A stretch of DNA of 64,000 nucleotides. It comes from an uncultured Gammaproteobacteria bacterium (GTDB lineage Bacteria; Patescibacteriota; Microgenomatia; Levybacterales; GWA1-39-11). Positions 1 to 55,393 of this stretch are shown piece by piece. The translations under genes were made by a program, and so were the position numbers. The DNA is taken from assembly GCA_964485575.1 (NCBI GenBank), contig CAZAJO010000008.1, positions 921-64,920 on the forward strand. Direction: 5' to 3'. Within the stretch, counting starts at the first letter, position 1, and each line of letters starts with the position of its first letter. Below the pieces are notes generated by a model. The model was not told where the DNA came from, searched no databases, and saw only the letters and a program-made list of their open reading frames with translations.

Positions 1-3000
1 CAACATTTCCATTTGTCCCAAGAGTTGAAACCTGAGTCAGGTTACTTAATAAGATTTGGCCGGATCCATTTGGCGCGATGGTAAGATTTTCATTTGTCCC
101 GGTTGTGATATCTGTTGATACTCCATTGAACGTTAGAGTACCTGTTGTCGTTATGGCACCAGAACTTACTGTTCCGATATTAGTAAGGTTACCTGATGCA
201 TCAATTCTTCTGACTCCATTTGTCTGGATATCTGTGACTCCATTTATTGAAGAGGCAGAAAGTGTTGCTGTTGTACCATTGTCAACGAGTGTAAGCAAAG
301 TATTTGGTGATCCTTCAGCATCCTTTATCGTTAAGGTTCCATTGTTCCCTAATGTTGAAAGCGTAATAGTTGGTGTCGTATTTGAAAGTGTCAGGGGTGA
401 GATGCCTGATAATGTGACAGTACCTGACGCGTCAAGCGTTGTTACCCCGCTTACAGCACCGGCATTTGTGATCCCACCATTATTGTTGTTAAATCCACCG
501 GTGATTGAAGCACCCCCTGCTGATACTGTTAGACCTCCGGTACTTACCGTCAAAAGCCCACCGATAGTTTGAGCAGTTGTAAAGTTATTATTTTGGCCTT
601 TGTACGCAACATTAGATAAGGTACCGGTTGTGTTTATATTGGCGCCATTAACCTGAAGTTGAGAGAGAGCATTAATTGTGTCTACTGAAAGTGTAGCAAC
701 TGTGCCGTTGTCAACGAGAGATAACAATGTATTTGGTGAACCGGCTGAGTCTTTTATAGTAAGGGTTCCAGCTGCATCTCCTGCGCCAACGGTAACAACT
801 GGATTCGTGTTTGAAAGGATGATTGGCGTAGCAGATGAGAACGTATTCGTGTTGGTGAACGTATTTGCCTGGTTAAGATACGCTACGTTTGTGAGAGTTC
901 CAGCAGTATTTATATTAAGTCCATTAAGCTGTATAGCGGTTATCGCATTGAGAACATCAGTCTGAACAGTACCAGAAGCTGTTATATTTGTAGCGCCAGC
1001 TATTGCACCCGTGTTAGTGATTCCACCTGTGTTGTTATTTATACCTCCTGTTATGTTGGCACCTCCCGCAGTCGCTACAAACCCATTAGCAGCAGTTATT
1101 GTTCCAGTTCCGGTTGTTACGATATTGCCTGAGGTCGTCAGATTGCCATTCTCATTTATGGCAAGAGTAGCCGAACCACTTGATTGGATCTGTAAAGCGT
1201 TTTGGATCGATGCATTCGTGTCATTAATGACAAGAGCTGCAGAGCCTGTTCCGGCGTTGGTTATTGTAAATTGTCTAGAGTTGAGGTTTGCAAGAGTAAA
1301 GTCAATGTTTCCTTCATTGTCTGTTGCTGAGATAGTGTTTCCGGCCTCATAAGCTTGTTGCAACGTAACATTGTTAACGTTTGCATTACACGAGGCAATT
1401 TGATTTGAAGCATTTCGACAAAGCCCTGAAGTCCCGTTAGTGCCTAAAGTAGGTACCTGTACAAGATTACTCAAAATTATTTCTCCTGTTCCATTTGGAG
1501 CAATTGTTAGATTCTCATTTGTTCCGGTCGTGATATCTGTACTCACGCCATTGAAGGTAAGCGTTCCGGTCGTAGTTATTGCACCAGAGGATACTGTACC
1601 GATATTAGTGAGGTTGCCTGAAGCGTCTATTCTTGTTGTACCATTTGTTTGTACATTTGATGAAGCATTGACTGTCCCTACAGTCAAAGTACCAACTGTT
1701 CCATTGTCTACTAATGTCAACAATGTATTAGGGGAACCGTTTGAATCATTAATCGTTAAAGTTCCAGCCGCGTTTCCGGCTCCCAAAGTTATAACCGGGT
1801 TAGTGTTTGAGAGAACAACCGGTGTTGCTGAAGAGAACGTATTCGTGTTTGTGAAAGTATTGGCTTGATTGAGATACGCAACGTTTGTGAGAGTTCCAGC
1901 TGTGTTGATGTTAGCCCCATTGAGTTGGATTGCAGTAATGGCATTTAGGATATCCGTTTGGGTAGTACCTGAAGCAGTTATATTAGTTGCACCGGTAATT
2001 GCACCAGTATTTGTTACTCCACCATTATTGTTATCGATTCCACCAGTAATTGAAGCCCCACCGGTTGTTACTGTTAAGGCTCCCCCAATGGTCTGACCAA
2101 CGGTGAAGTTATTGTTTTGACCCTTGTAAGCAACGTTTGTGAGCGTTCCAGTTGTATTGATATTAGTACCGTTGAACAAGAATCCGGTAACAGCATTTAC
2201 GCTTCCGGTAAGAGACAAGTTACCGACAGTACCTGCATCAGTCAATGAGAGCAGGGTATTTGCATCACCATCATTTATTGTAAGCGTGCTATCAACTCCA
2301 GCAGTTCCCAAAATTGCTGTTGGAGCGGCATTGGTAAGTGTTAACGGAGATGCTCCAGAAAGAGTGACTGTCCCTGAAGCGGTGATATTGGTCGCACCAG
2401 CAATAGCACCAGTATTTGTGATTCCACCGGTGTTATTGTTGATACCACCTGTTATGGATGCACCACCTGATGATACAGTCAAAAGGCCAGCGATTGTTTG
2501 ACCGACAGTGAAGTTATTGTTCTGACCCTTATAAGCAACATTTGAGAGGGTACCCGTTGTGTTGATATTTGTTCCGTTCAACAAGAATCCGGAAACTGCA
2601 TTTATTGTTCCTGAAAGCGATAGGTTTCCAACAGTCCCAGCATCTGTTAATGTCAGAAGAGTATTTGGTGAACCTTCAGCATCTTTTATTGTCAGTACCC
2701 CGTTGTTTCCGATTGTTGCAAGAGTAACAATCGGCGCGTTGTCAGAAAGTGTTACCGGATTTGCATTCGAGAATATATTATTTTGTGAGAAAGTATTTTG
2801 TTGATTCTGATAAGCGACGTTTGTGAGTGTACCAGCTGTATTGATATCTGTCCCGTTCAATTGTATGACAGACGTTGCATTGACTGTTGCTCCCTGAATC
2901 GTTCCTGAAGCAGTTATGTTGGTTGCACCAGTGATCGCCCCCGTGTTTGAGATACCACCAGTATTGTTATTAATTCCACCGGTTATTGATGCTCCACCTG

Positions 3001-36708: not shown

Positions 36709-36721
36709 AATCAACTACATA
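36693..36721 (+). promoter_or_regulatory. divergent promoter candidate (NUDIX gene)
   Basis: TTGACC (36693-98) - N17 - TACATA (36716-21). This box overlaps the track start ATG 36721, which favours the start at 36742 (SD-like AAGGAAA upstream). Confidence 0.4.
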
Positions 36722-36741
36722 TGCAAAAGGAAAAATTTAAG

Positions 36742-37161
36742 ATGATTGTCTCTGTTTATCTACTTCTTATGAAGGAAGGAAAAATTTATCTTCAAAAAAG
36801 AAAAGGTACAGGATTTAGGGATGGACAATGGGGGCTTATTGCCGGTCATCATGATGGAGGCCAAACTCTCAAAGAAGCGATGATTCGGGAGGCCAAAGAA
36901 GAAGCAAACATTGAAATTTTGCACTCGGATCTTCAATTTGTTCATGCTCTCCATAAAAGAGAAAATGACGAGAGACTCGAAATATTTTTCAGAACTGATA
37001 CTTGGGTAGGTGAACCGATCATTGCCGAACCGCATAAGGCAGAAAGCGCAGAGTGGTTTGACCCAAATCAACTTCCTGAAAGAACAATAGACTACATTGC
37101 AGATGTCATCAAGAATGTTACAGCTGGAACTAACTATAGTGATTATGGTTTTGAATCATGA
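36742..37161 (+). CDS. NUDIX hydrolase
   Basis: Nudix box GLIAGHHDGGQTLKEAMIREAKEEANI. The track start 36721 is also possible. Confidence 0.85.
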   Translation: MIVSVYLLLMKEGKIYLQKRKGTGFRDGQWGLIAGHHDGGQTLKEAMIREAKEEANIEILHSDLQFVHALHKRENDERLEIFFRTDTWVGEPIIAEPHKAESAEWFDPNQLPERTIDYIADVIKNVTAGTNYSDYGFES

Positions 37162-37622
37162 ATAAGCTTGCGACTCTTTGCTATCTTCAAAAAAATGGGC
37201 GCACACTTATGATATGCCCCCACAAAAAGAAAGTCACAGAATATAATGGGAAATGGAATGGATTGGGAGGAAAAGTGCAGAATGGAGAGACCCCTGAAGA
37301 ATGTGCGATACGTGAAGTGTATGAAGAATCCAATTTAAAGGTTAAAAAGCTCCAGTTTGCGGGTATCCTTACGTTCCCTAAGATTTTTGATGATCAAGAT
37401 TGGTATTGTGTAGTTTATAAAAGCTCAGATTTTTCCGGAAAGTTAATTGAGTCTGATGAGGGAAACCTGGAATGGATAAAGAATGAGAAAGTTTTGGAAA
37501 AAAACCTTTGGGAAGGTGATCATTTTTTTCTTCCGTATCTTTTTTCAGGTAAATTATTCAATGGGAAATTCTTTTACAAGAAGGGTACATTGTTAAAGCA
37601 TTCAATATCCCTTATGGAGTAG
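37158..37622 (+). CDS. NUDIX hydrolase (MutT-like)
   Basis: Nudix box GLGGKVQNGETPEECAIREVYEESNL. ATGA overlap with the previous gene. Confidence 0.85.
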   Translation: MNKLATLCYLQKNGRTLMICPHKKKVTEYNGKWNGLGGKVQNGETPEECAIREVYEESNLKVKKLQFAGILTFPKIFDDQDWYCVVYKSSDFSGKLIESDEGNLEWIKNEKVLEKNLWEGDHFFLPYLFSGKLFNGKFFYKKGTLLKHSISLME

Positions 37623-40004: not shown

Positions 40005-40460
40005 TTATTTCATGTATTTTTTGAGGTAATTTATTCTTTCAGTTTGGATGATGTATCTTCTGAAAGCGGAGTGGAGTGGGCGGGGCAAATTGTCGAGAGT
40101 GAACCATCCGATATCATCAATCTTATCCTTTTCCATGATTTTTACATTCCTTGGATCAACTTTAACGATAAATCCAATTGCTAGCCAGTGAGTCTTTATT
40201 CCTTTTTGAATACGTATCGCCGAGATTGCCGGAATCTGTTCCAGAATTTCTGCTTTACACCCCAATTCTTCTTTAACCTCTCGCAAAACTCCCTGCTCAG
40301 GCGTCTCTCCAAACTCTAATTGTCCACCCCCATTATCCCACCGTCCAACCTCATCTCTACAGGCTTTACCCCTTTTATGTAATAGGATGTTGCCTTTTCC
40401 ATCCATGCAATAAAAATTCATGGTAACTCCAATATAATCAATCCCAACTTTACGTTTCAT
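40005..40460 (-). CDS. NUDIX hydrolase
   Basis: Nudix box GGGQLEFGETPEQGVLREVKEELG. ATG 40460 (MKRKVGIDY...) is preferred over the TTG at 40478. Confidence 0.85.
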   Translation of the reverse strand: MKRKVGIDYIGVTMNFYCMDGKGNILLHKRGKACRDEVGRWDNGGGQLEFGETPEQGVLREVKEELGCKAEILEQIPAISAIRIQKGIKTHWLAIGFIVKVDPRNVKIMEKDKIDDIGWFTLDNLPRPLHSAFRRYIIQTERINYLKKYMK

Positions 40461-40468
40461 AGTACAGC

Positions 40469-40496
40469 AGTATACCAAATGAGAATGTTATGGCAA
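40469..40496 (-). promoter_or_regulatory. promoter candidate, leaderless geometry (NUDIX)
   Basis: TTGCCA (40496-91) - N16 - TATACT (40474-69) - N8 - ATG 40460. Confidence 0.45.
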
Positions 40497-41821: not shown

Positions 41822-43864
41822 ATGAATCTTGATACTCCTGTTGGAGAACTCGGACTTACATTCCGACTTAAAAAATCAGCACTTGCTAGACTCAACATTT
41901 TCACTCTAGGAGATCTCCTTTTTCATCTCCCATTCAGGTACGAGGACTTCACAAATGCCGTTACCATTAGAAATCTTAAGATAGGGCAACAATCTGTGAT
42001 AAGAGGAAAGGTTCTTGATATAAAGAACGAGTACACAAAAAAAAGGTTTGTTCTTCAAAAAGCAAAAATCATGGATGACACGGGAACTGTCGAATGCACT
42101 TGGTTCAATCAAACATATATAACCCGAATTATCCATAAAGGTGACGAAATAGGACTTGTCGGAAAGCTTGATTTTTTTGGGAAAAAACCCACCTTTCAAG
42201 TAAAAGAATATGAAGTCATATCCAACGAATCTGGGCTTCATACAACTGGATTTGTACCTGTTTACAATGAAACGAAAGGACTTTCATCCAAATGGTTACG
42301 AAACAGAATAAATGACATCCTCACTAATAATAAAACGACTGTTCAGGAATATTTACCTCTACAAGAATTGAAAAAACTCAACTTCGCCGATTTGTATACT
42401 GCTCTTAAGACTTGTCATTTTCCCCAAGATATAAAATCAGCTGACCTTGCACGAGCGCGACTAGCTTTTGATGAATTATTACTTTCACACTTAGCAGCAA
42501 TTAAAAGAAGACGCGAATGGGAAGAAAAAAATAAAGGAGTACCATTCCAAACTGCAAATTACAAACTGCAAACTACAAAATTTATAAACTCCTTGCCATT
42601 TGAGCTAACAGGTGGACAGAAAAAAGCACTCTCAGATATTGAAAATGATTTACAAAGGGATATACCAATGAATAGACTCTTGGAGGGGGATGTAGGTAGT
42701 GGAAAAACAGTTGTTGCAGCGATTTCGATGTATATAGCACACCTCAATTCTTTCCAGTCAGTACTAATGGCACCCACGGAGATTCTTGCCAACCAACATT
42801 ACGATACTATTTCAAAACTCTTCGAACCCCTAGGTGTTTCAGTCGGCCTCCTCACCGGTTCGTCCAAAACAGGTTCTAAACTCTCAACTCTCAACTCTCA
42901 ATTCTCAATTCTTGTAGGTACTCACGCTCTTATTCAAAAAAATGTGAATTTTGAAAAACTAGGACTTGTTGTCATTGATGAGCAGCAGCGGTTTGGGGTA
43001 GAACAGCGCTCGATCTTACGAGAAAAAGGTACTAACCCTCATTTCTTGACGATGACTGCAACACCTATCCCAAGAACAATTCTCTTGGCTGTATATAAAG
43101 ACCTTGATATTTCATTATTAAATGAATTGCCGAAGGGAAGGCAAAAGATAAAGACTTGGCTTGTCCCCAACAAAAAAAGAGAGAAAGCATACGAATGGAT
43201 AAAAAAACAGATTGTCGAAAGTGAATTTGCCGATCAAGCATTTATTGTTTGTCCATTTATAGAAGATTCTGAAAGCATGGACACCATCAAAGCAGCAAAA
43301 TCAGAGTTTGAAAGGTTGCAGCATGAGGATCTGAAAGGACTCAAGCTTGGATTGTTACATGGAAAAATGACAGGAAAAGAAAAAGATCAGGTGCTTATGG
43401 ACTTTAAGGATAAAAAAACACACGTACTTGTCGCAACACCTGTTGTTGAGGTAGGAATTGATATACCAGGTGCCACAATCATGGTAATTGAGGCCGCCGA
43501 GCGATTTGGACTTTCCCAGCTACACCAGCTCCGAGGTAGGGTAGGCCGGGGTGACAAGCAGTCTTATTGTCTCTTATTCACCGAATCTGAATCTGAGATT
43601 GCTACAAAAAGACTATCATTTATGGAAACTTCCCATAGTGGTTTTGAACTTGCAGAGTTGGATCTAAAACTTCGTGGTGGAGGAGACCTTTTCGGTACAC
43701 GCCAACACGGAGCAGGCGGCATGAAAATTGCAGATTTTTCAAATTTTGAACTTGTTGAAAAAGCAAAAAACGAAGCTGAATATTTGATCAAAGATCTGGA
43801 AAATAATCCGAAGCTTTTAGAAAAAGTGGAAAGTGTCTCGCAAAAATTAGTCCACCCCGACTAG
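41822..43864 (+). CDS. recG: ATP-dependent DNA helicase RecG
   Basis: Wedge/OB N-terminus, GDVGSGKT, DEQQRFG, TATPIPRT and QLRGRVGRG motifs. Confidence 0.93.
   Translation: MNLDTPVGELGLTFRLKKSALARLNIFTLGDLLFHLPFRYEDFTNAVTIRNLKIGQQSVIRGKVLDIKNEYTKKRFVLQKAKIMDDTGTVECTWFNQTYITRIIHKGDEIGLVGKLDFFGKKPTFQVKEYEVISNESGLHTTGFVPVYNETKGLSSKWLRNRINDILTNNKTTVQEYLPLQELKKLNFADLYTALKTCHFPQDIKSADLARARLAFDELLLSHLAAIKRRREWEEKNKGVPFQTANYKLQTTKFINSLPFELTGGQKKALSDIENDLQRDIPMNRLLEGDVGSGKTVVAAISMYIAHLNSFQSVLMAPTEILANQHYDTISKLFEPLGVSVGLLTGSSKTGSKLSTLNSQFSILVGTHALIQKNVNFEKLGLVVIDEQQRFGVEQRSILREKGTNPHFLTMTATPIPRTILLAVYKDLDISLLNELPKGRQKIKTWLVPNKKREKAYEWIKKQIVESEFADQAFIVCPFIEDSESMDTIKAAKSEFERLQHEDLKGLKLGLLHGKMTGKEKDQVLMDFKDKKTHVLVATPVVEVGIDIPGATIMVIEAAERFGLSQLHQLRGRVGRGDKQSYCLLFTESESEIATKRLSFMETSHSGFELAELDLKLRGGGDLFGTRQHGAGGMKIADFSNFELVEKAKNEAEYLIKDLENNPKLLEKVESVSQKLVHPD
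42881..42908 (+). repeat. heptanucleotide array (CTCTCAA x3 + TTCTCAA) inside recG
   Basis: The sequence at 42878-42913 is aaaCTCTCAACTCTCAACTCTCAATTCTCAAttctt and encodes KLSTLNSQFSIL. It is about 80% identical to the pilin leader coding sequence at 51626-51664. Confidence 0.9.
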
Positions 43865-44091: not shown

Positions 44092-44445
44092 ATGAAAACT
44101 GCTCTTGATCCAAGGCATAAGAAGAGACAGGACATTGTTCAACTTCTTTTTTCCTACAGTTTTTTAGAACAAAAAATTTCTGATCCAAAAGCTCGAGAAG
44201 TAATATCAAAAATTCCGGAATTGGATCTACAAATAAATAATATAGCTCCCGAATTCCCAATAGACAAAATCAACAAAGTTGACCTGTCTATTTTACGTCT
44301 GGCTATTTATGAGTTACAATTTGAGAAGAGCACTCCACCGAAAGTAATCATTGATGAAGCAATTGAGTTAGCTAAAGAATTTGGAGGAGAATCGTCTCCA
44401 GGCTTTATAAATGGAGCTCTTGGGAAGTTGTTAAAAAGTCTATGA
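44092..44445 (+). CDS. nusB: transcription antitermination factor NusB
   Basis: DLSILRLAIYEL...VIIDEAIELAKEFGGESSPGFINGALGKL. Confidence 0.85.
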   Translation: MKTALDPRHKKRQDIVQLLFSYSFLEQKISDPKAREVISKIPELDLQINNIAPEFPIDKINKVDLSILRLAIYELQFEKSTPPKVIIDEAIELAKEFGGESSPGFINGALGKLLKSL

Positions 44446-45113
44446 ATGTTAAATTACCAGAATTCAAGGATGAAAAAATCCGAAAACTAGTTTTTACCCA
44501 TAGGTCATACCTTAACGAAAATAAAGAGGTACAAGAGTCAAATGAGCGTCTTGAATTTTTGGGGGATAGTATCCTTTCATTTGTCGTTTCATCCCACATC
44601 TACTCACAACACCCGGACATAAAAGAAGGGGATCTGACTAGTCTCAGATCAGTTCTAACAAATACGCAGACTCTGTATCTCGTCTCAGAAGCTTTAGGAC
44701 TTGGCAATCTACTTACTATGAGTAAAGGGGAGGAAGACGGCGGTGGAAGGACGAACAAGACTATTCTTGCAAATACTTACGAGGCTGTTGTGGGAGGTCT
44801 TTATCTTGATCAAGGGATAGATGCAGCTCGGGAATTCATTACTCAAACTATTATTGAGAATGCTAATGAATTCGTAGGATCTCAAGGACTAAAAGACGCA
44901 AAAAGCATGCTGCAAGAATATATGCAAGAAAAGTTTAAAGTCAGTCCTGATTATAGAATCTTGGATGAGCAAGGACCTGATCACGACAAAAATTATACTT
45001 CAGGCGTATTTTTGAATGGTGAATTGATAGCCAAAGGGGTAGGACATTCAAAACAAGAGGCTGAAAAAGACGCTGCACAAAAGGCTCTTGAGACAATGAA
45101 CGTTTCATATTAA
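44442..45113 (+). CDS. rnc: ribonuclease III
   Basis: Catalytic ERLEFLGDSIL and a C-terminal dsRBD (GPDHDKNYTSGVFLNGELIAKGVGHSKQEAEKDAA). Confidence 0.92.
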   Translation: MNVKLPEFKDEKIRKLVFTHRSYLNENKEVQESNERLEFLGDSILSFVVSSHIYSQHPDIKEGDLTSLRSVLTNTQTLYLVSEALGLGNLLTMSKGEEDGGGRTNKTILANTYEAVVGGLYLDQGIDAAREFITQTIIENANEFVGSQGLKDAKSMLQEYMQEKFKVSPDYRILDEQGPDHDKNYTSGVFLNGELIAKGVGHSKQEAEKDAAQKALETMNVSY

Positions 45114-49502: not shown

Positions 49503-49556
49503 GCTACGACCTGCTATTCAGGTTGCGCTACGACCTGCTATGCAGGTTGCGCTATG
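49503..49556. repeat. 24-nt tandem direct repeat (2.2 copies), each copy hairpin-forming
   Basis: GCTACGACCTGCTATTCAGGTTGC (49503-26) and GCTACGACCTGCTATGCAGGTTGC (49527-50) are 23/24 identical, followed by a partial GCTATGGAC. Copy 2 contains the palindrome ACCTGC-TAT-GCAGGT. The array overlaps the stop codon at 49552-54. Confidence 0.85.
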
Positions 49557-50136
49557 GACTAAAGTTTCTCATCGTAACTGATGTATTGAATGGACTATTT
49601 GCTGTATTTTCACTTGTAGTATTTGCTCTTTGTGAAACGGTGAAAGATACGCTTATGATAGGCTGAGAATAAGGGTTTGCATTATTTTGTAAACACGAAA
49701 AAGTACAGCTAGCAGGATCAACTTTTACTGAATTATTGTCTATTAGATAGGTAGTTATAGAACCACTGGAGGAAGCTATGCTTGCTGATTGAATATCGCA
49801 AGAAAACGCTACGAGTGAGTTATCGGATTGCTTGAATTCGATTGACGTGCCTGACTTAAGAGTAGTGCAATCTGAGATGGCAACACCTCCAACTTTTGTC
49901 ACTGACTCAGCCAATCTTGCAGTATTTGAAATAATTGAAAGAGCATAATTACCATTTTGAGAAACATCATTTGTTACTTTAGTCTTATTACCACCACGAA
50001 GAGTAGAGTAGAGAATACCGACTATTAGCCCCGACACAATCACAATGATACTTGTAACAGCCAAAAGCTCAACAAGAGTGTAGCCCTTTTGGCCATTTTT
50101 TAGTTTGTAGTTTATAGTTTTTAGTTTGGTAATCAT
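49552..50136 (-). CDS. minor pilin / pseudopilin (prepilin-type N-terminus)
   Basis: ...NGQKG|YTLVELLAVTSIIVIVSGLIVGIL. Confidence 0.7.
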   Translation of the reverse strand: MITKLKTINYKLKNGQKGYTLVELLAVTSIIVIVSGLIVGILYSTLRGGNKTKVTNDVSQNGNYALSIISNTARLAESVTKVGGVAISDCTTLKSGTSIEFKQSDNSLVAFSCDIQSASIASSSGSITTYLIDNNSVKVDPASCTFSCLQNNANPYSQPIISVSFTVSQRANTTSENTANSPFNTSVTMRNFSP

Positions 50137-50615
50137 GGATTACTGGCAGGATACGCATATGGCATACATGCAATAAGTTCTGACTTGTGACAAAATGTGT
50201 TTGTCGAGGGACATTTCGTCGAAATCCATTTGACTCGTACAGTTACTTTTATTTCAGTGTTTGGACATTGCCCCCCACTTGGGGAAAAAACAACTGTCCT
50301 GTTAAAAGTTGTTCCCAGGTTGATTCCAGTATCGCTACAAGATGTAGTTGTTAAAGTATTGTTATCTTCATCAATACAGTATGTTGCATTTTGGTTAAAT
50401 GAAGCAAAGGTTGAAAGATCGTTTTTCTGTATGTTCCTTACGAATTCGATTCCTTGTTGCGCATACTTATTGGCTTGGTTTTGTTTTTTTATGAAAGTAG
50501 AATTATATAGTCCATTCACAATCACAATAGCTATAGCTGTAATGATAAGAAGGATAGTCATAAGCGCAACTATCGCTTCAATAATTGTTTGACCCCTTTG
50601 AAGTTTGTGTTTCAT
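50133..50615 (-). CDS. minor pilin / pseudopilin
   Basis: MKHKLQRG|QTIIEAIVALMTILLIITAIAIV. ATG 50615 lies 1 nt after the upstream stop; the track start 50678 is a TTG. Confidence 0.6.
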   Translation of the reverse strand: MKHKLQRGQTIIEAIVALMTILLIITAIAIVIVNGLYNSTFIKKQNQANKYAQQGIEFVRNIQKNDLSTFASFNQNATYCIDEDNNTLTTTSCSDTGINLGTTFNRTVVFSPSGGQCPNTEIKVTVRVKWISTKCPSTNTFCHKSELIACMPYAYPASNP

Positions 50616-50616
50616 A

Positions 50617-51168
50617 TCATTGAACAGAAATATTTCCACCGGAATCAATAGTGATAGTTTTTGTCTGACCGTATCCAATCACTACGATATTACATGGAGC
50701 CCCACCAACCGTTGACGACAAAGGACTAAAATGAACCTGAGTACAAGTAGTTGCAGCAGAAAAAGTTAAATTGTTGGGTAAAACAAGAAGTCTTATGCGT
50801 GAGGGGCTTACATTCTCGCACAATTGATTGAGTTCCATCTGAGAATTACCAAGCATATTTATTGTGTATCCCCCAAGAGAATCAGAACCACAAGAGATGG
50901 TATTGCCATTGAGGTCTTGATTGGTCTTGACTGCAGATAGTGCGTTGAATCGAGCCTGACTAACAAGAAGTTTTATATTATTGCCGGTTTGATTGACTTG
51001 TTGGGAGTGACTATACGTAACGAAAGACACAATTCCTATGCCAGAAAGTACAGCAATTATGCTAAACACAACAAGAAGCTCAATTAGGGTGAAACCACGA
51101 GAATTTGAGAGTTGAGATTTGAGAATTAAGAATTTTAAATTTGTGATCTTCTGGGTAAAACATTTCAT
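50617..51168 (-). CDS. pilin-like protein (GspH/FimT-like), long leader
   Basis: ...LKFLILKSQLSNSRG|FTLIELLVVFSIIAVLSGIGIV. The leader is encoded by a heptamer array. Confidence 0.75.
   Translation of the reverse strand: MKCFTQKITNLKFLILKSQLSNSRGFTLIELLVVFSIIAVLSGIGIVSFVTYSHSQQVNQTGNNIKLLVSQARFNALSAVKTNQDLNGNTISCGSDSLGGYTINMLGNSQMELNQLCENVSPSRIRLLVLPNNLTFSAATTCTQVHFSPLSSTVGGAPCNIVVIGYGQTKTITIDSGGNISVQ
51104..51136 (-). repeat. heptamer array (NTCTCAA on the coding strand) in the pilin leader
   Basis: The + strand reads tttgagaGTTGAGATTTGAGAATTAAGAatttt. Confidence 0.85.
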
Positions 51169-51176
51169 ACTTAAAT

Positions 51177-51205
51177 ATCAATTCTCAATTTTCAATTATC
51201 AATTT
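51177..51205. repeat. intergenic heptamer array, inverted relative to the leader arrays
   Basis: The + strand reads ATCAATT CTCAATT TTCAATT ATCAATT, directly after the pilin stop (51206-08). Confidence 0.85.
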
Positions 51206-51667
51206 TTATGGGCTGGTTAATTTGAAAGGTACATTCGGGGAAGTACAAACGTTAGCGTCGGCTTGATCAGTATCCTTCTCAGAGTCATTTGAATTCTCAA
51301 GGCAACCAAATAGTGTGTAGGTAGATCCGTCAACTGCTGCAGTATATATATAAGGGTCACCCGTAACTGGATCACATGGTACTTTCTGCATATATACGGT
51401 CCCATTTACTGAAATCCCATTACCACAAGTAGATAGATTTGCAGTAGCAGGGTAGTCACCATTATCTGCTCTGTAAAGCTCTAAAGCAGACTGCATTTGG
51501 TACATATTTGACTTTCTTTGCCCGTCTCTTCCTCGTTGTCTTGCACCAATGAAATTTGCTGTCAAAAGAGCTGTGAGAATAGCAATTATAGAGATTGAAA
51601 CCAATAATTCGATGAGCGTGAAACCTCGAGGGTTTGAGAGTTGAGATTTGAGAGTTGAGAATTTCAT
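51206..51667 (-). CDS. type IV pilin / T2SS-G-like pilin
   Basis: MKFSTLKSQLSNPRG|FTLIELLVSISIIAILTALLTANFIGARQRGRDGQRKS. Confidence 0.85.
   Translation of the reverse strand: MKFSTLKSQLSNPRGFTLIELLVSISIIAILTALLTANFIGARQRGRDGQRKSNMYQMQSALELYRADNGDYPATANLSTCGNGISVNGTVYMQKVPCDPVTGDPYIYTAAVDGSTYTLFGCLENSNDSEKDTDQADANVCTSPNVPFKLTSP
51634..51663 (-). repeat. heptamer array (TCTCAAC TCTCAAA x2) in the pilin leader
   Basis: The coding strand reads atgaaatTCTCAACTCTCAAATCTCAACTCTCAAAccc. Confidence 0.9.
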
Positions 51668-52029
51668 GATTGATTCTTAAGTTTATTAATTATAGAAACC
51701 AGTATGGCTACAATCTCATTTGATTCACTTTTAAGTTTAGATAGTTCTTTTGCCGAAAGCAAGCCTGATACCTCAATGACTTCAAGCCAATAGTATGTCT
51801 CCTTAGCTTCTCGAAGAGAAATGAGCATTTTTTGCCTAAAATCCTTAGGTGATGATGCATCTTGCGCCTCGTAAACATTCGCCCCAATTGAAGTAGCAGA
51901 CCTAACAATTTGAGATGCTAACGCGTAACCTGCAGGAGTTTTTGGAAACATATTAGACAACCTTATAGTATCTGAAGAAAAAGAAATCAAACGTTGCATA
52001 AATTCTTTTTTCCATTGATTTCTGTCCAT
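51664..52029 (-). CDS. four-helix-bundle protein (23S rRNA intervening-sequence protein / Avd family)
   Basis: IVRSATSIGANVYEAQDASSPKDFRQKMLISLREAKETYYWLEV matches the family signature (IGANIAEG...S..DF...L.IA.GS..E). ATGA overlap with the pilin start. Confidence 0.75.
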   Translation of the reverse strand: MDRNQWKKEFMQRLISFSSDTIRLSNMFPKTPAGYALASQIVRSATSIGANVYEAQDASSPKDFRQKMLISLREAKETYYWLEVIEVSGLLSAKELSKLKSESNEIVAILVSIINKLKNQS

Positions 52030-52050
52030 AATGTGAACATTTTTAAATTT

Positions 52051-52070
52051 TCAAATCTCAATTCTCAATT
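52051..52070. repeat. intergenic heptamer array, inverted copy of the pilin-leader sequence
   Basis: The + strand TCAAATCTCAATTCTCAA (52051-68) matches the reverse complement of 51634-51651 at 17/18 positions. Confidence 0.9.
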
Positions 52071-52717
52071 CATGGCGATATATTTGGGCTTGTAACTCCA
52101 TAGGTGCAGGGCACATTTGTTCCGCAGGTTATATCTGTTCCGCCAATTCCGGTCCCAATCGTACTTTGGCAAGCACTTCCGCCATTGCAAGCCTGAGGAT
52201 CATTGCCACCTCTGTCTAAAGATGCATAAAGTGCATACGACTGCCCGGTAGAATCTGACCAGTACGCATAATTCTTAGCAACCTTTGGATCTATTGGGAG
52301 TACATCCATATATGGACTCCATGTGTGTCCCCATGCAACTGCGGTACCGCTTGTCCCATCTGTGGATATCTCATTTATGTTTGCAGCTTGGTAGGCTGGA
52401 GGATATCTATGGAAGTCGTTATAATAGACCTCAAGTGCTCTTTGGACCTGTGCAAGGTCTCCTTTTCTTTTTGAGTCCTGGCTTTTATTGAACTGCTCAA
52501 CTGGATTGACAACGGCAAGGATGAGTGCGGACAAAACTCCAAGAACACCGATGACCGTAATTAGCTCGATGAGAGTAAATCCACCACTTACCCCTACAAG
52601 AAGTTGTTGACGAAGATATTGAGGATTTGTTCTCCCCAAAAAAGGGATATCACGACTGAAACAACCAAAAAAGGTCCGAACGGAATTGTGCTTCCAAAAA
52701 AGTGCAATTTGCGCCAT
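52070..52717 (-). CDS. pilin-like protein, start uncertain
   Basis: ...LLVGVSGG|FTLIELITVIGVLGVLSALILAVV. The only in-frame starts are ATG 52717 (46-aa leader) and TTG 52639 (20-aa leader), and both overlap the 3' end of pilD. Confidence 0.7.
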   Translation of the reverse strand: MAQIALFWKHNSVRTFFGCFSRDIPFLGRTNPQYLRQQLLVGVSGGFTLIELITVIGVLGVLSALILAVVNPVEQFNKSQDSKRKGDLAQVQRALEVYYNDFHRYPPAYQAANINEISTDGTSGTAVAWGHTWSPYMDVLPIDPKVAKNYAYWSDSTGQSYALYASLDRGGNDPQACNGGSACQSTIGTGIGGTDITCGTNVPCTYGVTSPNISP

Positions 52718-53355
52718 ACAACCAGTATGATTGAGACCAAAGCACCTGTCAAGAAAGCCATATATAAGGCTACGATGACTGATGGAAATCCCAATAAAAA
52801 CCCTAATACGAAGGAAAATTTAACATCCCCAAACCCCATTCCCCTCCCCTTTGTAATTGCGAAAAGTATAAGAAAAAACAGCAGTGCACCGATTCCTGCA
52901 TATAGATGATTTGTTAGCGGCACATGCTTCTCGTAAAGATAAAAGATGCTTGCTATCGTTGACACTATGACTAATAAGTCAGGTATAATCCCGTATTCGA
53001 TATCGGCAAAAAAGATTCCTATAAGACTCCACAATATCACAGCTAAAAACAAGGCAGAAAACATAGTAATTGTCTGCGCCATAAATAGTGTGGCAACAAG
53101 CGTAAATGTTATACCAGTCAAAACTTCAACAATGATGAGCCTTCGCGGAATTTTTTTCTTACAAAATCTACATTTTCCACCCAAGATAAGATAAGAGACT
53201 ATAGGGATAAGATCTTGTGGGGAGAGTATTCTTTTACAGTGTTCACAGTACGATCTTCCACCAACAATACCACGCCCCGTTGAAAGTCTATCAATAACAA
53301 CGTTTAGAAAACTCCCCAAGACGCTACCAATTATAAAAGAGAGTAGTAGAACCAT
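52594..53355 (-). CDS. pilD: prepilin peptidase (A24 family)
   Basis: Zn-finger CEHC...CRFC. The catalytic Asp lies in GFGDVKF. Multiple TM helices. Confidence 0.9.
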   Translation of the reverse strand: MVLLLSFIIGSVLGSFLNVVIDRLSTGRGIVGGRSYCEHCKRILSPQDLIPIVSYLILGGKCRFCKKKIPRRLIIVEVLTGITFTLVATLFMAQTITMFSALFLAVILWSLIGIFFADIEYGIIPDLLVIVSTIASIFYLYEKHVPLTNHLYAGIGALLFFLILFAITKGRGMGFGDVKFSFVLGFLLGFPSVIVALYMAFLTGALVSIILVVWRKLHFFGSTIPFGPFLVVSVVISLFWGEQILNIFVNNFL

Positions 53356-53368
53356 TCCTTAAGTATAC

Positions 53369-55393
53369 CTATTTTTGTACTTCTTTTGTTATGGCTTTCT
53401 TTATATCTTCATTGAAAATACTCTTGTAGTATTTAGCAACCTCATCTACCTTCTTTTTATCTTTGTAACAATTTAATGCGTTGAAGTACCAGAAATAATA
53501 ATAACTTTTCTCGATAGGGTACAGATCTATTGCTTTTTTCATATCCGTATCTGCATCCGAGCAGTTACCGTATTGGCTTTCAACTCTGGATTTGCCTGCA
53601 TATCCTTTAGAAAACTCAGGATCAATAACAGTTGCGTATTTATAGTATTTAGCCGCGGCGCTAAAATCAGCATACTCACTAAAAAAAACATCCCCAATTT
53701 TGACGAATGCATCAGCATAATATGTAGGAATGTCTGACGTTGTAAGATTCCTCTCACTTGGTAGTAGTTTTGCCCGTTCTGGGATGTCGATACTGGCAAA
53801 ATCGTGTGGGAACATCCTCCTATAATCTTCAACGGAGGGTAAATTTTTTCTTTCAATAAGTTGATAACCTATTCCCCTCGGTAACCACATAAATTCGCTA
53901 TTGTTGAGTTTGATCTGCGTTGTCGCAAAAACGGGACGACTCTTTGATATTTTTTCGATAGTCCTAAAAAAGGCGTACAGATCGTCTTTTTTGTATTCTT
54001 TCTTTGATTGCTCAAAGAGAGGTGTGAAATAGTCATTTCTTATGGCAAAATTTCCTATTTCAACAAGCTCTATGTCTGGCCTTGTCTTCTTCACAAAGTG
54101 CATGTACCACGTATTGAATGATTTCGTATCCCCCTCTGCAACAAGTATTGATCCTTTAGGTAAATTTCTCATGAAATTGGCTCCAAATTCATTTCCAATC
54201 GACATGCTTGAGAGGTTTGTTTTTTGATAATTTTTAGTGAACTGCAGTAGTGGAATCAATATAAAAACCGCCAAAAGAATCATTGAATATATCTTTTTTG
54301 AAAAGACTCTTGCAAAAAAAGTGTAGATAAATAGTAATCCCCACGGAAAAAATATGACCAACATGACCTCAGAAAGAAGATAAAAACGTTCAACTGTTGC
54401 AAGAACAAAATTGTTGGTTATAGGAAAAGCTGCATAAAGGATAAATACTGGACCTAGAAGTAGGATAGACCCCATCATCAAAAACCCTAAATATTTTTCT
54501 TTACGAATCATGTTATATATTCCAAGTAGTGAAATAATTACAACTGGTATAGTTAATGAAGAACTGAGTGATTCAAAATAGTTTTTCAATAGGAAACTCC
54601 TCAATTCAAATGCAGGTCTAGGAAATATTCCTGCTGAAAATGTACCATAATCTCTTCTTAATACAAGGTTGATGAAATTCGGAAGGTTTTTTGCGTCATC
54701 CCAGTTTACGACCGGATTTCTAACAGCTGCTATTGGGATGTAAAGATATGGAAGCAGCCCTAAAAGAAAAACAGGGGGTAACCATAGTAATTTTTTGCGG
54801 AAAGAAAAAATTTCCCGTCTTTTGTTTATAGCCAAAAAGACAACTAGTGGGACCAGCATGAGAATAGTCATGTGGTTTGCCAACCCAAGGCCCAAAAATA
54901 ATACTGTCAAAGCTAAGTTTTTAAATCTCACCTTCTTATAAAAAATGAAAATATTGTAAACCATGCAAAGGGAAAGAAATATATTGAGCATAAAAACCTC
55001 AGGTATTTCGCTAAAAAGCCAGAAATGATAGGAAAATGCCAGCGCTCCGATACTTATGATTTGGATCATCTTATCCGATATGAAGATTTTTGTGATTTTC
55101 CAAAAAACGAAAAGTGAACCTATCGCTGCAAAAGCAGAGATCAGTCCAACTTTAGTAACAGGCTCAAGATTTAGTTGCAAATGACTTAAAGCAAAACCAA
55201 GCACTGTAAAGAGTGGGTATCCCGGAGGGTGAGCAACACCACCAACTACAGCAGCAGTAACGAGATCTCCAACATCCCCACCATAAATATCACTTGTCAA
55301 TCCAGATATATAGAAAAATAAGATTATGGACAGAAAAATAGAGACGAAGAAGGAAAAAAAGCCGATTGTTATTTTTATTCCACCAATAGACAT
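53369..55393 (-). CDS. DUF2723/TMEM260-like GT-C glycosyltransferase with C-terminal TPR repeats
   Basis: GGDVGDLVTAAVVGGVAHPPGYPLFTVLG signature, about 11 TM helices, and a TPR-like C-terminus (AAKYYKYATVIDPEF...). Confidence 0.7.
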   Translation of the reverse strand: MSIGGIKITIGFFSFFVSIFLSIILFFYISGLTSDIYGGDVGDLVTAAVVGGVAHPPGYPLFTVLGFALSHLQLNLEPVTKVGLISAFAAIGSLFVFWKITKIFISDKMIQIISIGALAFSYHFWLFSEIPEVFMLNIFLSLCMVYNIFIFYKKVRFKNLALTVLFLGLGLANHMTILMLVPLVVFLAINKRREIFSFRKKLLWLPPVFLLGLLPYLYIPIAAVRNPVVNWDDAKNLPNFINLVLRRDYGTFSAGIFPRPAFELRSFLLKNYFESLSSSLTIPVVIISLLGIYNMIRKEKYLGFLMMGSILLLGPVFILYAAFPITNNFVLATVERFYLLSEVMLVIFFPWGLLFIYTFFARVFSKKIYSMILLAVFILIPLLQFTKNYQKTNLSSMSIGNEFGANFMRNLPKGSILVAEGDTKSFNTWYMHFVKKTRPDIELVEIGNFAIRNDYFTPLFEQSKKEYKKDDLYAFFRTIEKISKSRPVFATTQIKLNNSEFMWLPRGIGYQLIERKNLPSVEDYRRMFPHDFASIDIPERAKLLPSERNLTTSDIPTYYADAFVKIGDVFFSEYADFSAAAKYYKYATVIDPEFSKGYAGKSRVESQYGNCSDADTDMKKAIDLYPIEKSYYYFWYFNALNCYKDKKKVDEVAKYYKSIFNEDIKKAITKEVQK

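Follow-up and report, generated by a model that had tools for sequence, protein, structure and literature searches.

A PF05635 four-helix-bundle gene bracketed by inverted heptamer arrays in a type IV minor-pilin operon of a Levybacteria genome

We analyzed a 64-kb stretch of a Levybacteria genome (the window; 41% GC) from the Candidate Phyla Radiation (CPR) and found that a small gene encoding an Avd-like four-helix-bundle protein of family PF05635 lies between two minor-pilin genes, in the loop of a predicted long-range stem whose arms are inverted arrays of 7-nt repeats. The element shares its build with the intervening sequences (IVSs) of 23S rRNA; because it does not lie in rRNA, we class it as an IVS-type cassette in a protein-coding operon, one arm of which is translated. 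The reading that we favor, at about even confidence, is that such a cassette is resident in the operon mRNA, with its stem controlling expression of the Avd-like gene and of the pilin gene that follows. The bracketed layout was typical of the family in many genomes, and PF05635 cassettes therefore look like a general type and not an rRNA oddity; this family-wide heptamer bracket is the part of the analysis most worth following up. IVS elements and their S23p open reading frame (ORF) have stood unexplained since about 1990, and the same fold is that of Avd, the obligatory and poorly understood partner of the reverse transcriptases (RTs) of diversity-generating retroelements (DGRs).

An Avd-like gene in the loop of an inverted heptamer repeat

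The features that make up the cassette, together with a candidate nuclease for its stem, are as follows.

52070-52717, minus strand: pilin 1, T2SSG-like; the gene starts within the 3' end of pilD, and its stop codon directly adjoins the 5' arm
52041-52072, minus strand: 5' arm, a purine-rich heptamer array (GAATTGA, GAATTGA, GATTTGA, AAATTTA and so on), from the sequence and tandem-repeat scans
51664-52029, minus strand: Avd-like/S23p/IVS-protein four-helix-bundle ORF, 121 amino acids (PF05635, TIGR02436), in the loop of the predicted long-range stem
51206-51667, minus strand: pilin 2, a minor pilin with N_methyl and T2SSG-like matches; its ATG overlaps the Avd stop
51634-51661, minus strand: 3' arm, a pyrimidine-rich heptamer array (TTCTCAA, CTCTCAA, ATCTCAA, CTCTCAA) that doubles as pilin-2 leader codons ~3-12
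44442-45113, plus strand: rnc, with RNase III and double-stranded RNA-binding domains (E = 9e-35)

An earlier note on this DNA, made from the sequence, had assigned the 121-residue ORF to the IVS/Avd family and had proposed a search against PF05635. That search gave 81.8 bits (E = 5.1e-23; cutoff 33.8), and the match to TIGR02436, "four helix bundle protein," was 98.8 bits (cutoff 24). As a single sequence the ORF also matched the Protein Data Bank entry 2rld, a solved pentamer (E = 3.5e-17), and a profile of its clade reached both 2rld (4e-33) and 2gsc/XCC0516 (0.0033); bAvd was not reached by the sequence profile of this clade. The ORF is the sole copy in the window. The stop codon TGA (51666-51664) and the pilin-2 ATG (51667-51665) share bases in the sequence ATGA, an arrangement that the note had pointed out and that is read directly from the sequence. 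Comparison with the ortholog at locus L008 gave rates of nonsynonymous and synonymous substitution (dN and dS) of 0.19 and ~2.4, respectively, the pattern of a protein under purifying selection.

The note had further described a 17/18 inverted repeat around the gene, formed by TCAAATCTCAATTCTCAA (52051-52068) and, 399 nt away at 51634-51651, a copy of its reverse complement that differs at one position. This repeat is real and can be lengthened to 28 nt, over which 51634-51661 and 52041-52068 are 82% complementary. The bracket is a pair of tandem arrays with a 7-nt period, (TTGAGAN)n upstream and (TCTCAAN)n in the pilin leader, as detected by Tandem Repeats Finder and a lag-7 scan, and similar arrays occur without an ORF before pilin 3 and in a RecG-like gene (see below). 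The 5' arm begins 1-2 nt past the pilin-1 stop and finishes 11 nt ahead of the Avd ATG, and the cassette, ~435 nt in total, takes up everything between the pilin-1 stop and roughly the twelfth codon of pilin 2. The 3' arm encodes part of the pilin-2 leader peptide (MKFSTLKSQLSNPRG/FTLIELL, the slash marking the cleavage site): in agreement with the note, the stem covers leader codons, the 18-mer spanning codons ~6-12 and the 28-nt arm codons ~3-12. Such array-encoded leader sequence is presumably tolerated because the prepilin peptidase PilD removes leader peptides.

The repeat score between the two flanks of the cassette stood well above shuffles (z = 12.5), and the 18-mer was found with up to three mismatches at 12 sites in the window versus 0.29 expected. 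The long-range stem was predicted in both the minimum free energy and the centroid folds of a 471-nt RNA spanning the cassette. Consensus scans found promoter-like sites (26 versus 20.9±5.1) and terminator-like sites (3 versus 4.3) inside the cassette at chance level.

The cassette in related pilin loci

The nearest PilD sequences place the organism in Candidatus Levyibacteriota. The Avd protein was identical on four metagenomic contigs. One of these, L001, belongs to a lineage whose flanks are ~80% identical, and it was 100% identical in pilD and in the Avd gene with its arms; compared with positions 50000-53400 of the window, the globular parts of its pilins were 89-95% identical and the remaining locus 65-88%. 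This pattern suggests that a pilD/minor-pilin segment was recently exchanged between two lineages and that it carries diversifying pilin bodies. A strain with 96% identity (L004) had 14 extra nt, equal to two more heptamer units, in the 5' arm. Differences in array copy number were seen solely in this non-coding arm; the coding 3' arm showed no length or frame-shifted alleles among the strains compared.

Two PilD-anchored loci from GTDB genomes, L008 and L071, have a PF05635 gene at precisely this position, again with the ATGA overlap. The overlap was also present in L165 and L173-L178, orthologous cassettes were recovered in L165-172 and L173-179, and more Avd homologs with 59-78% identity all lay in the same slot (P0002, P0005, P0006, P0009 and P0016). 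At L015 the slot holds an Avd pseudogene with a stop at the invariant Trp, and this locus keeps a 25-nt, 92% complementary repeat. At least eight diverged Levybacteria/Microgenomates lineages carry the gene in this slot, with Avd identity down to 50%. The bracket was present at every slot ortholog compared, and changes of the unit were compensated between the arms, as in the following examples.

Window: 5' arm unit TTGAGAA, 3' arm unit TTCTCAA
L176: 5' arm unit TTGTGAA, 3' arm unit TTCACAA
L071: 5' arm unit GAAATGA/GAGAGAG, 3' arm unit TCATCTT

RNAalifold run on seven lineages returned a 23-pair consensus stem in which 7 pairs were changed on both sides.

Avd was absent from L006, L007, L009, L011, L014, L017, L018, L020, L022-24, L051 and L078. 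Pilin 2 of the Avd-less relatives has a short plain leader (e.g. MKNKKTIRG), and two of them, L006 and L009, keep a lone (GTATTAA)n array downstream of the pilin-1 stop. Carriers were scattered on a rough PilD tree, and the divergence of Avd ranked like that of PilD, a comparison that rests on few orthologs (window, L008 and L071). We read the cassette as an old resident that has been repeatedly lost, with L015 caught in the middle of a loss; repeated gain at one site is a possible alternative.

The synteny comparison that the earlier note had proposed showed relatives with the gene and its repeats, without the gene, or with a pseudogene, and never with the gene as a stable, repeat-free member of the operon. 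The note's picture of an IVS-like cassette inserted between pilin genes holds, on stronger evidence than the note had, as to its ORF family, its stem, its size of ~435 nt and its heptamers before the ATG, all of which match the Coxiella IVS described below; a recent insertion is ruled out, because the slot is filled across a deep clade. At the arm borders no target-site duplications were found when Avd-plus and Avd-less junctions were compared.

Several independent assemblies of the L008-type locus (L170, L171 and L172, and also L166 and L167) break 28-65 nt past the Avd stop, beyond the 3' arm. These breaks at the junction of array and pilin 2 hint at strain heterogeneity or at assembly trouble.

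The bracket across the PF05635 family

We collected 80 distant PF05635 loci from metagenomes (35-47% identity) and scored each by the best ungapped inverted repeat between the 150 nt that precede the start and the 150 nt that follow the stop. Roughly two thirds of these loci reached z≥5 against shuffles, with arms of up to 55 nt. A score of at least 12 was obtained for 74% of 73 PF05635 genes and for 6% of 69 control ORFs drawn from the same contigs (Mann-Whitney p = 2e-17). Most arms were tandem arrays of period 7 or 14, and their units varied by locus (GAAGTGA, AATGTCA, AATTACG, AGTTCGG and others). The median arm was 30 nt; the distance from the end of the 5' arm to the ATG was ~10 nt, and that from the stop to the 3' arm ~11 nt. 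In 53 of 55 distant loci the 5' arm was the purine-rich one (p = 9e-14), a polarity that argues for a strand-specific role at the transcript level.

The neighbors of the distant genes were diverse housekeeping genes, ~80% of them co-oriented and lying ~40 nt off on each side, and there was no pilin among 51 downstream genes. Judged from these loci, inverted heptamer arrays bracket PF05635 genes in general and are not specific to pili. We found no literature describing a family-wide bracket, although absence from the searchable literature is not proof of novelty. An element inside rRNA or in a known RNA family was rejected as an explanation: the window had no match to an Rfam family, and none of the 20 best bracketed loci lay in rRNA by the same check.

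Two of the controls that scored high were a GxxExxY/PDDEXK_3 (TIGR04256) gene and an IS200-like Y1 transposase gene. These two and two more small ORFs with similar flanks, which had no family match, lie at L111 (3068-3484), L141 (1246-1878), L107 (929-1378) and L144 (1410-1772); the bracketed IS200-like gene is that of L141. The only Rfam matches at the 20 bracketed loci checked were two unrelated ones to the Acido-Lenti-1 RNA (RF01687), in inverted orientation near the PF05635 cassette of L096, at 296-341 (minus strand) and 432-477 (plus strand).

Heptamer arrays elsewhere and an ORF-less hairpin

The window contained 7 heptamer arrays (five within the minor-pilin operon, two within the RecG-like gene), compared with 0.15 in shuffles. 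The motif of the arms also lies at 51102-51135, 51173-51208 and 42873-42914 and is thus not a unique bracket. Two of the features concerned are in the pilin operon.

51102-51205, minus strand: ORF-less hairpin of the same type before pilin 3, with arms at 51173-51205 and 51102-51134
50095-50128, minus strand: an array of a second heptamer type, reading (CTACAAA)n on the coding strand, which encodes part of the pilin-4 leader (MITKLKTINYKLKN…)

The arms of the pilin-3 hairpin are 33 nt long and 76% complementary, and the 38-nt loop between them contains the pilin-3 ATG (51168-51166). Its predicted fold (-21.5 kcal/mol, z = -2.9) places this ATG within an inner helix. Pilin 3 and pilin 2 are paralogous through the leader region (56 nt, 86% identical). 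The pilin-3 hairpin has no ORF, and the loop occupied by the Avd gene therefore belongs to a kind of hairpin that can also be empty; ORF-less heptamer hairpins were likewise found ahead of pilin 3 in L009, L018 and L071, with different units. No complementary partner was found for the (CTACAAA)n array at 50095-50128.

The RecG-like ORF (41822-43864, plus strand) carries in-frame heptamer arrays at 42555-42579 and 42873-42914. They have both units found in the pilin leaders and encode the same peptides, PFQTANYKLQTTK resembling the pilin-4 leader and GSKLSTLNSQFSILV the pilin-2 leaders of relatives, which suggests that arrays have been copied between loci. There was no complementary partner near either RecG array. 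In PilD, heptamer arrays form in-frame insertions in loops relative to array-free orthologs (e.g. NGSQFLISNFKFLINFQLL and NNFQFSISNFQSISNFQLLNFQ); such pilD-internal arrays lie at 6283-6354 in L071, at 6279-6528 in L010 and at ~6270-6310 in L012, L018 and L022. In 80 PilD loci (L005-L084), the units tended to be genome-specific: TCTCAAN occurred at 5 sites in the window, and TCATCTY at 4-5 sites in L071. The in-frame arrays in RecG and PilD, taken with units that are common within a genome, suggest copying or homogenization at the DNA level. Of the 75 arrays in the PilD loci, 30 lay no more than 130 nt upstream of the pilin cleavage site (G/FTLIE), a territory that makes up 3.4% of the sequence (p = 1e-24).

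Relation to known elements

In the 23S rRNA of Coxiella burnetii the IVS has 428-444 nt and a 28-bp terminal stem with one mismatch, and it carries an S23p ORF in the loop; three to four tandem copies of GACAGAT stand directly before the ATG in strain-dependent number, and RNase III cuts in the stem (PMC4990558). The element in the window shares with the Coxiella and Leptospira 23S IVSs a PF05635/TIGR02436 ORF in the loop of a stem formed by terminal inverted repeats. The Coxiella stem corresponds here to 28-nt arms with a 17/18 core, and the size of ~435 nt falls within the Coxiella range. Both elements have tandem heptamers just upstream of the ATG that differ in copy number between strains, and both have a poor Shine-Dalgarno sequence and an RNase III gene in the genome. 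Unlike the rRNA IVSs, the element in the window has pilin genes on both sides, its 3' arm codes for prepilin leader sequence, and its ORF overlaps the next gene. The Avd protein has a substitution pattern that points to purifying selection; the Coxiella ORF, by contrast, is in decay. The Coxiella IVS is excised by RNase III, a step that for the present element is hypothetical. PF05635 ORFs have also been found among the rRNA insertions of CPR bacteria (PMC11270868).

A second point of comparison is the 5'-untranslated region of Haemophilus influenzae hmw1A, where a transcribed (ATCTTTC)n array forms a long hairpin with a complementary arm and is processed by RNase III, and where both expression and the change of repeat number depend on the hairpin or its processing (PMC12721329). 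As in hmw1A, a heptamer array in the window is part of a long predicted hairpin upstream of or at the start of a gene for a surface structure, and the (CATCTTT)n of the L071 3' arm is the same unit as the Haemophilus (ATCTTTC)n. The hmw1A hairpin differs in having no ORF in its loop and in pairing one array arm with a G-rich stretch; its polarity is opposite, with the pyrimidine-rich arm first, and its array is untranslated.

Genome-specific heptamer arrays at many sites, as found here, also characterize Xanthomonas (GGGAATC) and Nostoc (GGGGA(C/T)T), whose units are G-rich and have been studied as quadruplexes. Both Xanthomonas and Nostoc carry PF05635 genes, among them XCC0516, whose structure is 2gsc. 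The Xanthomonas arrays include ~70 convergent inverted pairs, and the paper describing them makes no link to PF05635, the terms "S23" and "four helix" not occurring in it (PMC4692102). The heptamer bracket thus links three literatures, those on rRNA IVSs, on RNase III-processed hairpins of heptamer simple sequence repeats (SSRs), and on the Xanthomonas and Nostoc heptamers. REPIN/RAYT elements, built on repetitive extragenic palindromic (REP) sequences, are similar in that a gene lies between inverted copies of a short repeat that also occurs gene-less elsewhere in the genome. RAYT is a Y1 transposase with conserved REP sequences, whereas the Avd ORF has no nuclease or transposase signature and the arms differ by locus.

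A possible role of the stem and alternative explanations

If the cassette acts in the operon mRNA, the transcript would fold such that the purine-rich 5' arm near the Avd start pairs with the 3' arm at the pilin-2 start, and the stem would mask Avd initiation and the first ~12 codons of pilin 2. Ribosomes that end pilin 1 at the base of the stem, or that translate Avd up to the ATGA, would open it, and this opening would couple translation of pilin 2 to translation upstream. A stem that persists could be a substrate for RNase III, by analogy with the Coxiella and Leptospira IVSs and the Haemophilus hmw hairpin; cleavage would remove the start codon and the leader from pilin 2. The presence of rnc in the window, which the earlier note had reported, holds, and its product is a candidate to act on this stem. 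The Avd protein may in addition bind its own heptamer RNA. Slippage in the arrays would alter the length of the stem and thereby give rise to heritable variation in control. In CPR episymbionts, type IV pili are believed to serve in attaching to the host and in taking up DNA, and for these bacteria the cassette points to a post-transcriptional, possibly slippage-variable, control of minor pilins.

In favor of this reading stand the ORF family, the significance of the stem and its presence in the predicted folds, the orthologous cassettes with their compensated arms, the L015 pseudogene, the family-wide bracket with its geometry and polarity, the co-orientation of neighboring genes, the array copy-number differences between strains, the Coxiella and hmw precedents, and rnc. 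Several observations weigh against it. The 471-nt RNA as a whole was not more stable than shuffles (z = -1.05). Mismatches in the arms showed no bias toward wobble pairs, 36 being compatible with G·U and 37 being A·C. The energies of sense and antisense duplexes were equal family-wide (-33.1 versus -33.2 kcal/mol), and in the window the antisense duplex was predicted to be more stable than the sense duplex (-47.7 versus -29.0). A clear Shine-Dalgarno sequence is missing at most Avd starts here, and cutting within the 3' arm would come at a cost, namely the loss of the pilin-2 message.

A wider proposal, which we put forward tentatively and at clearly less than even confidence, is that PF05635 genes with inverted heptamer arrays form a widespread and unrecognized class of cassettes, of which the rRNA IVSs would be the minority that landed in rRNA helices. 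Within a genome the arrays would spread or be homogenized, maybe through a pentamer that binds 4-5 units, and this would leave genome-specific units, hairpins that lack an ORF, and insertions that stay in frame in pilin leaders, PilD and RecG; in Levybacteria the cassette would have been recruited to control type IV minor pilins, possibly also to make them phase-variable. If the unit is a general cassette found mostly between protein genes, what it does becomes accessible to study outside the ribosomal context.

Another explanation takes the cassette to be a selfish or mobile element at the DNA level, similar to transposable elements of the miniature inverted-repeat kind (MITEs) or REPINs, in which the arrays serve as substrates for recombination or as DNA hairpins, the ORF is cargo or helper, and RNA structure is a by-product. 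We consider this unlikely. An element that moved as DNA would account for the lack of a wobble sign of selection on RNA and for the strand-symmetric duplex energies, and it is consistent with the patchy distribution on the PilD tree, the decaying copy in L015, the change of array copy number between near-identical strains, the in-frame array insertions in the RecG and PilD loops, and the abundance of the units within a genome. The same bracket around GxxExxY/PDDEXK_3 and IS200-like genes, which are of a selfish type, also points to mobility, and IVSs were proposed in the older literature to be remnants of transposition (PMC4990558). However, the cassette never moves within the clade, keeping its slot and its ATGA while Avd diverges to 50% identity, and the like ranking of Avd and PilD divergence, in the few orthologs available, is that expected from vertical descent. 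There is no conserved recognition site among loci, because arm sequences differ completely between them, and no target-site duplication was seen at the junctions compared. The protein is without the signature of a catalytic family, and purine polarity relative to the ORF would be unexpected for a symmetric DNA element.

The hairpin might instead be primarily a regulatory or phase-variable heptamer SSR of pilins, of the Haemophilus hmw type, with the Avd ORF a passenger in one loop; this, too, seems to us improbable. The bracket accompanies PF05635 genes whatever their neighbors, none of the 51 distant downstream genes being a pilin, and within the clade heptamer-encoded pilin-2 leaders were found only where Avd is present, the Avd-less relatives having the short plain leaders. 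No frame-shifted 3'-arm alleles were seen among the strains. A role in pilin control gains from the ORF-less hairpins before pilin 3 in the window, L009, L018 and L071, from the strong concentration of arrays in pilin-leader territory, from the frame shift that arrays in a coding leader would undergo whenever the unit number changes by other than multiples of three, and from the hmw precedent (PMC12721329). Control at the RNA level, a DNA-level element and a pilin hairpin are not mutually exclusive.

DGRs are abundant in CPR genomes. Next to DGR reverse transcriptases, no Pfam family is found more often than PF05635 (PMC10053308), and the ORF could on that ground be an orphan DGR accessory protein (Avd) that diversifies the pilins. 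We regard this as very improbable. Pfam scans that covered the neighbors and those ORFs annotated outside the repetitive part of the window revealed no RT, and there was none beside the gene in the orthologous loci. No pair of template and variable repeats was found near the gene; the pilin operon is involved in no direct repeats of at least 45 nt, only in short leader paralogy. The clade profile matches 2rld and 2gsc and not bAvd, which has a related four-helix-bundle pentamer fold at the superfamily level, and a heptamer bracket has not been described for DGRs. With neither an RT nor a repeat pair, a DGR at this locus is effectively refuted.

That the inverted repeat arose by chance in AT-rich, low-complexity sequence (the window has 41% GC and the arms are simple repeats) is scarcely credible and was rejected by shuffles, in which motif sites, arrays and flanking repeats all fell far below those observed, by the family-wide enrichment over control ORFs, and by the compensatory changes conserved among orthologs.

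Gene order and other features of the window

All genes of the pilin operon, including the Avd ORF, are on the minus strand. Apart from the features already given, they are, in transcriptional order:

53369-55393, minus strand: TMEM260-like gene, the first in the order
52594-53355, minus strand: pilD, prepilin peptidase (A24_N_bact, E = 3.5e-28; Peptidase_A24, E = 5e-15)
50617-51168, minus strand: pilin 3, with a leader (…LKFLILKSQLSNSRG/FTLIELL) paralogous to that of pilin 2
50133-50678, minus strand: ORF without assignment, between pilin 3 and pilin 4
49552-50136, minus strand: pilin 4, followed by a 293-residue ORF and then pilM

The pilin-1 ORF and the 3' end of pilD overlap by 124 nt in different frames (52594-52717, minus strand). 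The leader of pilin 1 before the cleavage site is long (~46 residues), and its sequence is kept in relatives (MxxxxxFxxxxSxRxxF…); a gene caller set the start 26 codons later.

Elsewhere in the window, positions 2-26194 (minus strand) form one stop-free frame of at least 8,731 codons that runs off the start of the window. It is made up of many diverged repeats of 100-300 nt and is therefore taken to be the gene of a giant repetitive protein, probably a surface protein. A stretch of 4 kb contains three genes for NUDIX hydrolases, of which two are next to each other (36721-37622, plus strand; 40005-40478, minus strand).

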